A stretch of DNA of 63,768 bases, counting the filler, from Reclinomonas americana ATCC 50394 (lineage: Eukaryota), in the NCBI GenBank assembly GCA_048213135.1. It is 14 parts of 14 records of this genome, joined end to end, with 100 filler letters (N's around TTAATTAATTAA, not from the genome) between each part and the next. Parts side by side here need not be neighbours in the genome. Positions count along the whole stretch, not along the records: positions 1 to 17,933 come from AFZH01023602.1; positions 18,034 to 22,716 come from AFZH01023604.1; positions 22,817 to 26,085 come from AFZH01023607.1; positions 26,186 to 28,437 come from AFZH01023608.1; positions 28,538 to 31,889 come from AFZH01023609.1; positions 31,990 to 35,351 come from AFZH01023610.1; positions 35,452 to 37,996 come from AFZH01023611.1; positions 38,097 to 39,829 come from AFZH01023612.1; 6 more parts are not named here. One strand, 5' to 3'. Position 1 is the first letter of the stretch. Every line of letters starts with the position of its first letter. A model generated the notes under the pieces. The model was not told where the DNA came from. It searched no databases and worked only from the letters and a program-made list of their open reading frames with translations. Shown here piece by piece: positions 196 to 62,233 of the stretch. A program made the position numbers and the translations under genes.

Positions 196-3100
196 GCACA
201 ACACGCTGCATTTTTGGCCGACCATCCACCACAGAACGACGCTCAACTGGTGAGACTGCTTTTGTTCATTTTTCCTCCCACTTTCCTCCCTTTTTTCTCA
301 TTATGGAGTAGTCGCCGGAGAGTCGACGTTTGATGGCCGAGGCGCGCGTGTTTGCCTTCCCGCCCTTCCCACCCAAGACGTGGTTTACTCCGTCGGAGGC
401 CGAGGTGCAAGAGCGACGTGCCAAGTTCGATGCACTGCTGCGTGCGGTGCAGACGCAGCCGCACTTGGCCAACAGCCCCGATTTAATGGTGTTTCTCGAA
501 GTCAATGTTGCGTGCGTGCGTGCGTGTGGGTGAGGCTCAGTGCGCGCAGTGATGATGGGCTGGTGCAGGAGAGTCCGGTGGCGCATCTGTTGCGCATTGC
601 ACCGAGTCCGTTCCCGGAGGAGGAACAAATTCGTCGCAAGAAGACGTGAGCGCATTTTCCATCTCGATCTCTCTTTGTGGAACGTCACCCGCCTTACGTG
701 CGTGCACGTTGGTAGGATTGTGCGCCGTCGGCTGCAAAAGTCGCTGGCTGAGTTGCAGAATGGCACGCTGATGGCGTCGTCAATCATGGCGGGAGGATCG
801 TCGATGAGCATGTCGCAGAGCGTCATGTTTCCGGTTGATGCGCAGGAGCGCTTTGCCGCCGCGTTTATGAAGACCGAAAAAGTGAGTGGCGTCGTGATTC
901 CTCGCCATCGCAAGTGTGTCTGACTTGTGTGCACCGAACAGCTCAAGACGAGGCTGCGCCGCCTCCAAAAACGCGGCGATAGTTTCCTCTGTGAATTGGT
1001 CGCCTTCAGTCCCGCACCACCAGCAGGCATGTTGTTTTAATGTCGCGCTGTTCTGCACATTGTTTATTGGCTGACACCCGCATGCAGAGGAAATCAACAA
1101 GACGCGTCACTTGGTGCGGCGCATCGACCCGTCGCAGCACAGTTTTGTGATCTCGGTGTACGACGGATGCATTCTGTGTCGTGTCTACCACCCGCAGCGA
1201 GTGGACATGCTGGCCGATCGCGCGGTGATTCAGCACGTGTTGGACACTCCCAACGAGATTGTCACGCTCCCGTCGGGCACTGGCGAGCCGTCTGCGTCGG
1301 CTCTCATGATCTCCACCATTCGTGTCACCAGCGGCGGCCGTCACACTGCTGGTGCGACGGCAACCACGGCAGCGGCGGGTGCTCACCCTCTTGCCGACGA
1401 TGATTGGCCGTTTGACGATGAGGACGAGGACGACGAGGACGATGGCAAGGGTGGTGGTCCCTCGCGGAGCACCCTAATGTCGTCGGATTTCGAGCCAGTG
1501 GAGGATTCGACCGAGGTCACCCCGACTCCTGCTACTGCTGCTGCTGGTGCTGCTGCTGATGGAACCGGTGCTGCGTCGGCGGCGGCGAGCAAGGCAAACG
1601 ACGATGACGACGAGTGGCAAGTGGTGGACGAGGCGGCTGTGGTGATGGTACCGAGCGCGCCGGCGAGTTTGGCCACCGTGCCGCTCGATCAGTCGGCGGT
1701 GGTGCAGACGGGCACCTATTCGATTCACCTCAATCCGCACCCGTCACGAGGTACGATGGCGATTGCTTTTTTTCTTGCCTTCTTGTGTCATGTGCGTCGC
1801 TGATGCATGATGCGCAGCGGTGGCTCGACCGGGTGAAGAGGCTCTCTCGCCGCGACGCGTGCGAGCTGTTTTCGACTTTAACCGGTGTCCCATGCCCAAG
1901 TTCTGGTTATTCCTGGACCAGTTGTTGAATGTGAGCAAGGAGCGATGTGAGCTGCGCGCACAGAGGAGAGGCGATGTGCCGGGGGGAACGTCGCGAGTGT
2001 CCATTGAGTGGATTCCGCTGTCGCTGCCGCCGCTCTCACAAGTCCTCGCCCCGCTCTCCGACGGCTCCGTGACGCACTCGAGTTGCGTTGTGCCGGTCGT
2101 GCAGATATAGTCACTGTGTGCGCTTACCGCCTATGATACACGCAGTCGTGCTGGTGACCGACGACCACCCGATCGACACGGTTGGTCATCTTGTGCTCTC
2201 CTCTTTGCTCCAAGTCAACTCATGTGTGCCTTCTCCCGTGTAGTGGATCATGACGCTGGAGACGCTGTCCGGAGGCGAGCTGGTCGACACCATGCGCTTC
2301 ATGCGCGAAGAGCAGCGCGATCGCTACTGGAATGGTGAGTTGTTCCCCCCGCTTCCTGTCTCTTGCCATCGTCGCTCCTCATCCATGACTACTGTTCAGT
2401 TATCGACACGTTGCGCGACATGGAGGGTAAGCACGTCTGCGTTGCGCCACTTTTGTTGCTGCTGTACCTACTCACCGCTGTGTGTGCAGCACTGCGGAGC
2501 TCCAAGTGCAACCTGGAGAGCGCGCGTCACCAAAGCCTCCTCGAGGACCTCTTTGAGGCCGTGTTCCCGGACGAGATGTTGACGTCGATGTACAATCCCA
2601 AGTGGAAGGTTCTGGGTTTCCAGGTACGTCGCGCCATATCGTGCATGAAGAAGCAACAGGATTAGCTCCGCACCAACACCACGTGATTTCGTGTTGCAGA
2701 ACGCCAACGTGGCACGCGATTTTGAGACGTGCGGCGTCCTTGGTCTGCACCAGCTGGTGAAGTTCGTGAAGCGGTACCCGGAGTTGACGCAGCAGATGAT
2801 CAAGCAGCACCATCGGTACAGCATTGTGCAAGCCAGCACTCATGTTGCGTCTCACAGTTGGCACGCTGCATGTGGCCAGCTGGCTGATCATGTGAATACT
2901 GTCGCAGATCACGGTGCTCCTCTGCAACTTGGTCGGCATCTCGGCTGGTGAGTGTCGCGCGCTTTCTTTCCCTTTTCGCATCGTGCTCATGTCGTGCTTG
3001 TGCATGTGCACAGAAATCTACCAGTACGAGTCGGGTGCACGGTTGCGCGACGGCAGCTTCAGCGCGCTGCAAGACACGATTCGCGGCAATGCTATGTTCT

Positions 3101-4041
3101 CGTTCCTCGTGCGTGGCTCGCGCAACGTGACGGTCACCGATCTGTTCCACGAGATGCATGCGGCAATGCTGCATTGCGTGCACGTGCACACGGTGGAGCA
3201 CAGCCAGATTTCGTTCTTTGACGGCTTGCGTTCGGCGGCGCGTCTGTTGGTCGACGCCATTTGCCCTCCCGACCAGACCGTGGTCGCCAAGCTGCCGGTG
3301 GCCACCCTCGGCGCCTTGCGCGTCGAACTCGGTCTCTCGGCCGATCCCAGTCCAGCCGTGATTGTGCCCTCGGACTCGGTGACGAGCGCGTCTGGCCTGA
3401 CGCTCTCGGAGGACGATGTCGCCGAACTGCTGTCGGACGACATTCGACACAGCCGCAATTCGACGCTGGCGGTCGAGGCCGAGTGGGCTGCCTTGGTCGC
3501 CTCTCGAGGCCAAGCGGCGATGGCAGCCGCCGCATTGGCAGCATCGGCATCGGCCTCAGGAGCAGCGGCACCCCCACCAGCAGCAGGTGCAGCAGCAGCG
3601 ACAGCAGCGGCGGCGACAACCACTGAACCTGTCGGACAGGACGTCGACGCCGCTGGTGATGACGACGACGACGCCGGCAGCTTCCAGTCGCTGGAGGAGC
3701 CCGACGAGGAAGAGAGTGCAGCCGCCGCCGTGGCCACGGCCGTGGCTGCCGCAGCCGCGGTCGCCCTCTCCTCTTCGCTCTCCTCCTCGTCCTCCGCCTC
3801 TGCTACTGCCGTGTCCGCCGCGGCTTCACTGGAGCCGTCGCACTCGGGCGCCTCCTCGCCATCACCACTGCCACCGCTCTCCGATGAAGACGTCTCGCGC
3901 TGGTCAGCCATTCCCCCTCCACCCCCACAACCCTCATCCACCACCACAACCGCGACTCGCCCACCACTGCCCATTCACATTGTGGCGGCCACCCCGCTCG
4001 ACGAGTCCTTTGGCTCACAAAGCACGGATAGCGAATGGTAA
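196..4041 (+). CDS. PX domain + ELMO/CED-12 domain protein (multi-exon, 5' partial)
   Basis: Spliced exons give the PX C-half FPPFPPKTWF..VQERRAKFDALL..SPDLMVFLE (312-512). They also give the ELMO core LLEDLFEAVFP..PKWKVLGFQ|NANVARDFETCGVLGLHQLVKF..YSIVQASTH|IT (2490-2947) and FHEMHAAML. A low-complexity tail runs to TAA at 4041. Introns are GT-AG and frame-consistent. Confidence 0.8.
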
Positions 4042-4198
4042 ATTTCTCTCTCTCTCGGCCTCTCTCAAGTGCAGTAGTAAACAAGTTCAAGATAGTCTTT
4101 GGAGCAAAGCATCCCGGATGAGCTACTTGTTGACTGCACAAATTGCATTGGCCGATGTTCGGGTTTAGTAATTGTGCGTGTGTTAGAGAGGGAGACTC

Positions 4199-61424: not shown

Positions 61425-62155
61425 ATGCTGTTGCGCAGCGCGCTTGCACAGCGCTTCAAGTCGTATGCACGACTGCCAGGGCGACCATACCAGCCACTGC
61501 CAGCGACCATAACGTCGTCGCTCAAAGAAGGTGCATCTCGCGAAGTTTGAAAGAAAGAGAAGAGAGTGAGAGAAAGTGGGTTGCAGAGGAGGTGAAGAAG
61601 AGAGTAAGAGAGTGAGAGAGGTGTGCAGTGCGTTGTGTGAAAGAGAGTGTGTGTTTGTGAGTGGCAATGGTCGACATGTTTGCTCTCTCTTTCACAGAGA
61701 GAGAGAGAGAGAGAGAAGAGCAGAGAGAGGCAGAGTTGCACACTCACGCACACTCTCTTCTCTCTCACACACAGAGAACGCGCAATGAGAGAGAAGAGAG
61801 AGAGAGTTGCACACTCCTCTGCGTTTGTGTGAGTGTAAGAGAGAGATGCACACTGTCTTCACTCTCTGTGCTCCCTCTTTGTGTGTGAGAGAGAGTGTGT
61901 GTGTGTGTGCTCTGCCTTTCTCCATTCCCTCTCTTCCCTCTCTTCTCTTCTCTCACTCTCTCTACACACACACTCTTCTCACTCTCTTCTCTCACTCTCT
62001 CTCCTCTCTCTTTCTCTCTCTCTTTCACAGGTGGAGCGACCTCTGCGTGGGCTGGACATCGCGAATCGCGAAGGAGTGGGGTGATTGCGCGCAAGGTTGG
62101 CATGTTGGCCGAGTGGGATTCGCGGAATGTGTATCTGCCGTTGACCGTGTTGCAA
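61425..62155 (+). CDS. MRPL3: Mitochondrial ribosomal protein uL3m, first two exons
   Basis: Exon 61425-61530 encodes MLLRSALAQRFKSYARLPGRP.. (Arg/Leu/Ser-rich, acid-poor, presequence-like). It splices in phase 1 to 62031-62155, ..SRRSGVIARKVGMLAEWDSRNVYLPLTVLQ, the bacterial/organellar-type L3 N-terminus. Confidence 0.85.
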
Positions 62156-62233
62156 GTTGCGGAGAAGGGGAGAGGGGGGGGAGGAGAGGGGGAAGGGGAG
62201 GGGGGAGGGGGAGAAGGGGAGGGGGAAGGGGAG

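Follow-up and report, generated by a model that had tools for sequence, protein, structure and literature searches.

How a spliceosome would recognize donors whose consensus is displaced by one base is the question raised by a stretch of DNA from Reclinomonas americana ATCC 50394 (assembly GCA_048213135.1). The stretch, referred to here as the window, is 63,768 nucleotides (nt) long and consists of 14 parts of 14 records joined end to end; positions are counted along its whole length. Ordinary donors in it carry G at intron position +5 and are termed class A, whereas those of a second group, which most often read GTTGCGT, carry G at +6 and are termed class B. An earlier reading of the same DNA, hereafter the original prediction, had listed 33 donors of the second group and taken them to be a major class, formed from the ordinary word by an extra T, with G+1 standing in for the missing -1 G, and read either by register-shifted U1/U6 pairing or by a variant small nuclear RNA (snRNA). 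Here, we report an analysis of gene structure in the window, according to which a shifted donor class very likely exists. As judged from the DNA, class B is abundant, is under selection and differs from class A at the 5' end of the intron only.

All junctions were called from the DNA, by means of reading frame, homologs and paralogs internal to the window. Genes were assembled with an exon-chaining dynamic programme that uses codon log-odds and an iteratively learned acceptor matrix and contains no donor model; it imposes GT and AG as hard intron ends, so that their presence is not an independent result. In what we call the agnostic model, GT is the sole donor information. Its first pass had no intron-length prior and skipped many micro-exons, and a later version adds such a prior. 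The informed model chains exons using a donor mixture that it derived from its own predictions. The final models contain implausibly long introns at 27428, 33436 and 41309.

The words given in the original prediction are present at 32 of its 32 plus-strand coordinates, and the single minus-strand site, 42976, corresponds to a reverse-complement match at 42970; G precedes the intron at only two of the 33 sites (9432 and 47449), as had been said. In the window, GTTGCGT occurs 32 times on the plus strand and eight times on the minus strand (GTTGCG, 57 and 24 times), and the heptamer ranks seventh among plus-strand heptamers beginning with GT, after mostly microsatellite or low-complexity words. 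The first version of the agnostic model returned GTTGCG as its top donor hexamer, at 11 of 109 introns, compared with 1.2% of all plus-strand GT hexamers. With the length prior, the model predicted 156 introns, of which 21 begin with GTTGCG, 13 with GTGAGT and nine each with GTGCGT and GTGTGT, and 18 of the 32 listed plus-strand sites were used. The informed model predicted 135 introns and used 26 of the 32; 76 of its donors belong to class A and 46 to class B, 33 of the latter starting with GTTGCG. Shifted donors make up about a quarter to a third of the predicted donors, from 34/156 in the agnostic model to 46/135 in the informed one.

Predicted use of the heptamer as a donor is close to complete. 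On the plus strand, 29 of the 32 occurrences of GTTGCGT are predicted donors and the remaining three lie at 8364, 19788 and 27691; for comparison, the figures are 16 of 65 for GTGAGT and 15 of 56 for GTGCGT. Six listed sites were missed by the informed model, namely 8364, 19788, 19877, 27691 and 27782, which the final models lack, and 62156. The first five are supported otherwise, 8364 by the spacing in a homolog and the pairs 19788/27691 and 19877/27782 by paralog conservation around micro-exons of 20 and 23 nt, and 62156 is the only missed site without support. Running the agnostic model on the reverse complement gave GTTGCGT donors at 42976 and 37143 on the minus strand. Beyond the earlier list, class B sites were found at 507, 2082, 8915, 9198, 13086, 14834, 23923, 25634, 31007, 31159, 41309 and 58584, and at the minus-strand position 37143.

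The two classes separate without supervision. A mixture of two components plus a background component, fitted to the agnostic donors, resolved into NNG|GTGNGT, with G in 72% at -1 and 86% at +5 and T in 61% at +6, and NAW|GTTGCGT, with T in 79% at +3, C in 83% at +5, G in 86% at +6, T in 77% at +7 and G in 12% at -1. The original prediction proposed splitting donors by their +3 base and looking for G at +5 or at +6, and in the window's predicted donors this distribution is bimodal. Among agnostic donors with T at +3 (n = 57), G stands at +5 in 11 and at +6 in 36, whereas among those with G at +3 (n = 59) it stands at +5 in 46 and at +6 in eight.

The exon end divides the classes as well. Among the agnostic donors, G occupies -1 in 47 of 67 class A sites but in only 4 of 36 class B sites (Fisher p = 6e-9), and the contrast drawn by the original prediction is real. 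Within the donors that share T at +3, G is found at -1 in 6/9 of those with G at +5 and in 4/34 of those with G at +6 (p = 0.002); the contrast thus follows the position of the intronic G and not the T at +3.

Many of these junctions fall in genes whose products can be compared with relatives. G+C makes up 56% of the window, which abounds in microsatellites and introns, and Pfam matches on single open frames identify plus-strand genes for a PX-domain protein, an ELMO-domain protein, an IP3R/RyR-like channel, two vitellogenin-N-like (LLTP) paralogs, an ELO elongase, a RasGEF and a MORN-repeat protein, together with an eIF3a exon. The channel gene extends over about 4.9-16.8 kb (4960-16784), a length of about 11.8 kb, and comprises at least 54 exons; each kb of coding sequence is interrupted by roughly 7-8 introns, whose median length is close to 67 nt. 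Its best relatives in a library of 1.84 billion proteins are 36-44% identical in the pore domain, and no close relative was found there. A profile was built from 38 distant homologs returned by a representative-library search, and played no part in prediction. Against this profile the informed model of the gene, with 54 exons and 2293 residues, scores 776.8 bits and covers profile positions 133-2282. Of its 18 class B junctions, eight (7408, 8915, 10494, 13295, 13609, 13866, 14450 and 15417) lie in uninterrupted match states with top posterior and no deletion, three (9198, 10144 and 14997) are partly supported by the profile and the other seven lie where the alignment is weak or has an insertion. 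With T at +3 forbidden in the informed model, the gene fell into three fragments with a summed score of 528.8 bits; a canonical-only donor matrix gave 554.4 bits. The predicted class B donors of this gene are as follows.

7408..7414, plus strand: GTTGCGC, 68-nt intron; both models; profile continuous with top posterior and no indel, frame followed by eye
7581..7587, plus strand: GTTACGT, 65-nt intron; both models; sole GT in frame with the acceptor at 7645; profile weak
8364..8370, plus strand: GTTGCGT, after a 37-nt exon (8327-8363); missed by both models
8915..8921, plus strand: GTTGCGT, beyond the earlier list; both models; profile continuous
9198..9204, plus strand: GTTGCGT, beyond the earlier list; informed model only; profile partly continuous, one deletion
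9432..9438, plus strand: GTTACGT with G at -1; both models; profile weak
10034..10040, plus strand: GTTGCGT; both models, with different acceptors; in a profile insertion, where homology is uninformative
10144..10150, plus strand: GTTGCGT; informed model only; partial profile support
10494..10500, plus strand: GTTGCGT, 74-nt intron; both models; profile continuous, top posterior
13086..13092, plus strand: GTTGCGT, beyond the earlier list; both models; profile weak
13295..13301, plus strand: GTTGTGT, beyond the earlier list, directly after conserved LCEGHN; both models; profile continuous, top posterior
13609..13615, plus strand: GTTTCGT, beyond the earlier list; both models; profile continuous, top posterior
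14450..14456, plus strand: GTTACGT; both models; profile continuous, top posterior
14834..14840, plus strand: GTTGCGT, beyond the earlier list; informed model only; profile weak
14997..15003, plus strand: GTTGCGT; informed model; profile continuous, posterior dropping at the end of a 12-residue window
15417..15423, plus strand: GTTGCGT in the channel domain; junction continuous in the model

At 15417 one single-frame profile match stops at 15416, which is profile position 2071, and the following one resumes at 15575, which is position 2073; a tblastn alignment of homolog P0006 also ends at 15416. At 8364 a manual trace gives a spacing from a conserved LP to a conserved C equal to that of homolog P0008. 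The open reading frame that carries the 13295 donor also contains a Pfam RIH_assoc match. A separate observation concerns the donor at 8261, G|GTACTGC, which has A at +3, T at +5, G at +6 and G at -1. Homolog spacing supports this site, and it may represent another displaced kind or simply a weak ordinary donor. Single-exon word-index searches for homologs with the C-terminal exon of the channel and with the eIF3a exon gave no matches. Metagenome searches for related loci returned none with a channel exon and, with an ELO exon, three short and distant matches that were not used.

The LLTP genes provide an internal comparison. The two paralogs lie in tandem at 18149-22500 and 26189-31000; in their 5' parts the identity is 89% across some 770 nt (18149-18915 versus 26189-26962), in the remaining exons it is 65-67%, and the introns have diverged. 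Micro-exons of 20 and 23 nt are kept in both copies (19857-19876 and 19942-19964, matching 27762-27781 and 27852-27874). The donor class is kept as well.

19788..19794 and 27691..27697, plus strand: class B pair, GTTGCGT; paralog alignment, both missed by the models
19877..19883 and 27782..27788, plus strand: class B pair, GTTGAGT and GTTCTGT; 19877 follows the 20-nt micro-exon, with a TA|C split codon in both copies
21034..21040 and 28903..28909, plus strand: class B pair, GTTGCGT; paralog alignment, both models for each
21137..21143 and 28998..29004, plus strand: class B pair, GTTGCGT; paralog alignment, 21137 in the informed model and 28998 in both
21228..21234 and 29085..29091, plus strand: class B pair, GTTCAGT and GTTGTGT; paralog alignment, 21228 in the informed model and 29085 in both
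21593..21599 and 30021..30027, plus strand: class B pair, GTTTCGT and GTTGCGT; paralog alignment, both models for each
27428..27434, plus strand: putative class B donor GTTGCGC in the second paralog; informed model only, with an implausible 1373-nt intron, weakly supported
21340..21345, plus strand: class A donor G|GTGAGT for comparison, kept as GTGAGT at 29193; paralog alignment

Six donor pairs are class B in both copies, at least six are class A in both (for example 21340/29193, 21679/30127 and 21906/30365) and none switches class, which agrees with the claim that the class is kept at homologous introns (six of six pairs). At 19788/27691 the exon is conserved through the heptamer, the intron has diverged and the encoded peptide is conserved. 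Three of the class B pairs vary at +4 and +5 and keep T at +3, G at +6 and T at +7 (GTTGAGT/GTTCTGT, GTTCAGT/GTTGTGT and GTTTCGT/GTTGCGT). The pairs show that the displaced G and T are under selection. Homopolymer error, which the original prediction had argued against, is ruled out by the TT kept in all six pairs, and the exon end is unlike that of ordinary donors. The exon preceding 27428 aligns to 19651-19687 of the first copy.

Further junctions restore reading frames and family motifs in other genes. Splicing at 33264 joins ..FVHLFM to YGLWFF, with the frame of the Pfam ELO match staying open; we take the joined sequence to be the ELO family's histidine-box-distal motif. Splicing at 49612 gives ..CPNLM-N-MIQRFNKIG-HWVASQ..., in frame into a stretch that aligns with solved RasGEF domains, and the resulting spacing from PN to RFN presumably matches that of the family. 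At 50134 the spliced reading PFMAPFQNDL keeps the downstream frame open, and its spacing would match what we take to be the family's PYLG..L.DL motif. At these three sites, as at 8364 and 15417, splicing restores frames and family motifs. The predicted donors outside the channel and LLTP genes are given below.

507..513, plus strand: class B GTTGCGT at the end of a PX-domain exon, beyond the earlier list; both models; Pfam PX match ends just upstream
2844..2850, plus strand: class B GTTGCGT in the ELMO-domain gene, 64-nt intron; both models; Pfam ELMO match ends about there
23923..23929, plus strand: class B GTTGCGT, beyond the earlier list, 59-nt intron; both models
25634..25640, plus strand: class B GTTGCGT, beyond the earlier list, 63-nt intron; both models
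31159..31165, plus strand: class B GTTGCGT, beyond the earlier list, 63-nt intron; both models
33264..33270, plus strand: class B GTTGCGT in the ELO gene, 64-nt intron; both models
33436..33442, plus strand: class B GTTGCGT in the ELO gene; informed model only, 739-nt intron; Pfam ELO match ends just before; moderately supported
37137..37143, minus strand: class B GTTGCGT in a minus-strand gene, beyond the earlier list; agnostic model on the reverse complement
39199..39205, plus strand: class B GTTGCGT, 93-nt intron; both models
42970..42976, minus strand: class B GTTGCGT in a minus-strand gene, donor G at 42976, 61-nt intron; agnostic model on the reverse complement
47449..47455, plus strand: class B GTTGCGT with G at -1 in the RasGEF gene, outside the conserved domain; both models
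49612..49618, plus strand: class B GTTGCGT in the RasGEF domain, 72-nt intron
50134..50140, plus strand: class B GTTGCGT in the RasGEF domain, 67-nt intron; both models; PDB alignment of the upstream exon ends at the junction
55865..55871, plus strand: class B GTTGCGA, 64-nt intron; both models
62156..62162, plus strand: GTTGCGG, listed earlier and unsupported as a donor; in neither model

The last of these was named as a shifted donor in the original prediction and finds no support here: neither model uses it and no gene is predicted around it. In total, about 25 class B donors have independent support from profile continuity in the channel gene, from the ELO and RasGEF motifs or from the six paralog pairs.

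Three features of the DNA lie beside these results. At 33264-33273, GTTGC is followed directly by GTGAGA, a word of ordinary appearance whose GT lies 5 nt downstream; this forms a natural tandem pair of which only the upstream GT is in frame. At 51900-52970 a unit of about 330 nt is repeated three times in tandem, with open frames from 51959, 52295 and 52621 and near-identical peptides, and a smaller repeat lies around 50400-51000; gene models in this repeat area are unreliable. The N stretches of the window (44 N, TTAATTAATTAA, 44 N) are 13 linkers with stops in six frames, at 17934-18033, 22717, 26086, 28438, 31890, 35352, 37997, 39830, 44962, 53090, 55293, 57288 and 62389. They stand for assembly gaps and not for biology. 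Most of them interrupt simple repeats, GA/CT microsatellites among them, and some of the long introns predicted here cross them.

Apart from the donor, the introns of the two classes are alike. Class B introns have a median length of 68 nt and class A introns one of 67 nt. Among short introns, 35/41 of class B and 48/65 of class A contain a branch-like CTNAY motif (CTCAC, CTGAC or CTGAT, in both classes), whose median distance from the 3' end is about 20 and 18 nt; the acceptor is CAG in 38/41 and 61/65, respectively. Given these common features, both classes look like introns of the major spliceosome. Class B introns are spread evenly over the three phases (16/14/16), and class A introns favour phase 0 (42/76).

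We consider that class B introns are genuine major-spliceosome GT-AG introns with a second, sharply defined donor word, N-A-(A/T)|GTTGCGT, read by a one-base pairing offset, and we give this reading a probability of about 0.55. The displaced G and T suggest that pairing with U1, and subsequently with the ACAGA box of U6, is offset by one base; it is this offset that we infer. The extra U after GU would be accommodated by a displacement of one nucleotide in the U1 helix, and later in that with U6, either as a +1 shifted register or with a bulged U at +2/+3. The near-invariant intronic part would make the exon-end G dispensable, unlike at ordinary donors.

Several observations weigh against this reading. 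The frequency of G at -1 in class B equals the background at exonic GTT (12% versus 14%), so that G is neither selected nor avoided at that position. At -2, A is in excess, with 18/34 (53%) against a background of 17%, which fits an unshifted register; the enrichment of A at -1 (14/34 against 19%) fits a shift and is weaker. C stands at +5 in 28/34 class B donors and at the equivalent +4 in 25/78 class A donors (p = 1e-6), and in either offset register it would face a pseudouridine of standard U1 and add no pairing. The informed-model counts are partly circular, as the donor mixture was learned from that model's own output. Furthermore, the ablation of the channel gene in the agnostic model is not clean, in that forbidding T at +3 costs 68 bits (747.1 to 678.7) and forbidding A at +3 costs 66 (to 680.7). 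The original prediction stands in so far as it saw a major donor class and not an error; its description of the word as the ordinary one plus an extra T is too simple, since class B is more constrained at +5. As to the form of the offset, the missing -1 G favours a shift and the -2 A favours the unshifted register, and the data do not discriminate between a shift and a bulge.

The strong preference for C at +5, which suits neither shift nor bulge with standard U1, lends real weight to a different reader, a dedicated snRNA complementary to the heptamer, which would account for the class no less well than a shifted or bulged standard U1. Such a reader would be a second U1, or a U1-like snRNA, whose 5' end reads about ACGCAAC in place of ACUUAC and forms a straight seven-base-pair helix with GUUGCGU, ordinary donors being left to standard U1 and the exon-end G. 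A near-invariant heptamer (GTTGCG in 33/46 informed class B donors), a C at +5 unlike the equivalent ordinary position, no reliance on G at -1 and a coding-strand word almost confined to donors (29/32 by model and three by other evidence) are what perfect complementarity to a dedicated guide would be expected to produce. U6 would still have to take the extra base at catalysis, however, the variants GTTACGT, GTTTCGT and GTTGTGT are also used, and a search of the window with Rfam at gathering thresholds gave no matches, hence no snRNA there. The U1 5' end is also among the most conserved RNA sequences of eukaryotes. We hold a dedicated snRNA as a tentative, less likely alternative. Its full form is two parallel 5' splice-site systems within the major spliceosome, in which standard U1 would serve NNG|GTGNGT, a U1-like snRNA complementary to GUUGCGU would serve a quarter to a third of introns, and U6 and the catalytic core would accept the displaced helix; we think such an arrangement unlikely. 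It is also conceivable, and in our view quite improbable, that class B represents, in this genome, the U6-type half of a split donor consensus, the half that does not depend on the exon, with commitment at transfer to U6, helped by LUC7, SNRNP27K or U6 m6A, and displacement tolerated there and not at U1. The loop 1 of U5 is U-rich, and the A enriched at -2 and -1 would suit it. Exon-end G and intronic strength are anticorrelated here, as in the split-consensus model in the sections drawn on (PMC11732430), yet the class described there is informative at +3 to +5 and class B at +4 to +7, and neither 'bulge' nor 'shifted' appears in the main text of PMC11732430.

Could the class be an artefact, with the extra T an assembly error in GTGCGT or with misplaced junctions around a motif that belongs to the intron or the exon and does not mark the cleavage site? 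The draft assembly contains 13 gap linkers, and every junction is inferred. However, an error in GTGCGT would keep -1 rich in G, contrary to the 4/36 versus 47/67 observed, and the TT is present in both members of six paralog pairs with diverged introns. Nearby alternative GTs break the frame (removal of the T is itself frame-neutral, so the frame is uninformative on error), and the profile alignments contain no indel at eight junctions; we judge an artefact very improbable. A separate splicing system, either a transformed minor (U12-type) spliceosome or an introner family ending in GTTGCGT, deserves hardly any credence and is largely refuted. Expanded minor-intron systems and bursts of introners occur in some protists, and a long invariant intronic word without need of an exon end recalls U12-type sites. 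The U12 consensus, however, has the 5' word RTATCCTT, unlike GTTGCGT, and a TCCTTRAC branch close to the 3' end, whereas class B shares its branch-like motifs (CTCAC, CTGAC and CTGAT), their 3' distance, its acceptor and its length with ordinary introns. U12-type introns were rejected on these grounds. An introner origin and self-complementary intron ends were rejected likewise: listed side by side, class B intron bodies have no common sequence past the donor, and the longest complement of the first 10 nt within the same intron averages 4.10 bases in class B and 4.05 in class A.

Returning to the one-base pairing offset, related registers are known from mammals. Shifted and single-bulge registers have been experimentally validated in human cells, where, in the sections of the study drawn on here, they are rare: 68 sites with a +2/+3 bulge and 51 with a +3 bulge are predicted among 201,541 (Table 3), and all validated noncanonical registers together amount to 1.5% of human sites (PMC4856993). 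Class B resembles the +1 shifted register (Roca and Krainer 2009, via PMC4856993), as there described, in having GU, then an extra base, with the consensus one further in, in lacking the exon-end G and in allowing G+1 to be drawn opposite C9 of U1; the absence of -1 G is at background level. It differs in that the cited human examples are a handful of atypical sites, against 34/156 to 46/135 predicted donors here, and in that the local word needs a C at +5 that standard U1 cannot pair and is enriched in A at -2 as if unshifted. The +2/+3 bulge, as presented in the cited sections (Roca et al. 2012; Tan et al. 2016, PMC4856993), would likewise allow GUU and the downstream consensus to pair if one U is bulged, and among donors with T at +3 the ordinary consensus does follow GUU one base later (G at +6 in 36/57, T at +7 in 38/57). 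A bulge keeps -1 opposite C9 and should favour G at -1, which is at background here, and the preferences elsewhere are not the ordinary ones, as C at +5 shows.

The split consensus of AG//GUNNN (U5) and NN//GURAG (U6) offers another partial likeness, since the sections consulted describe two donor classes per genome, one exon-end dependent and the other intron dependent, with the two properties anticorrelated (Parker, Fica and Simpson 2025, PMC11732430). The classes described there are in one register, whereas the intron-dependent class here is displaced by one base and has a near-fixed heptamer; moreover, the exon-dependent class here keeps G at +5 (76/76 class A donors by definition, and 46/59 donors with G at +3). 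Among the top-ranked papers listed for the literature searched, which had subscription-only papers and supplements outside its scope, no prior description of a GTTGCG(T)/GUUGCG(U) donor class was found; the motif turned up there in primers, aptamers, microRNAs and other unrelated contexts, and a query on the split consensus yielded no papers. The organism's own genome paper or gene-finder parameters may record it.

The finding bears on annotation and on mechanism. A gene finder that has learned only one donor matrix will fragment genes in this genome, as seen when the channel gene was split in three once T was barred from +3. What sets the exact position of cleavage is still debated, with U1 setting the register on one view and U5 and U6 doing so at hand-over on the other, and mammalian donors displaced by one base are too rare for anything except single minigene studies. 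If a quarter to a third of introns are shifted, R. americana would offer a large natural sample in which the heptamer hardly varies and the exon ends of the two classes contrast cleanly. Such a genome could reveal what reads the extra base, be it an snRNA or a protein, and whether the 5' end of U1 is able to diversify.

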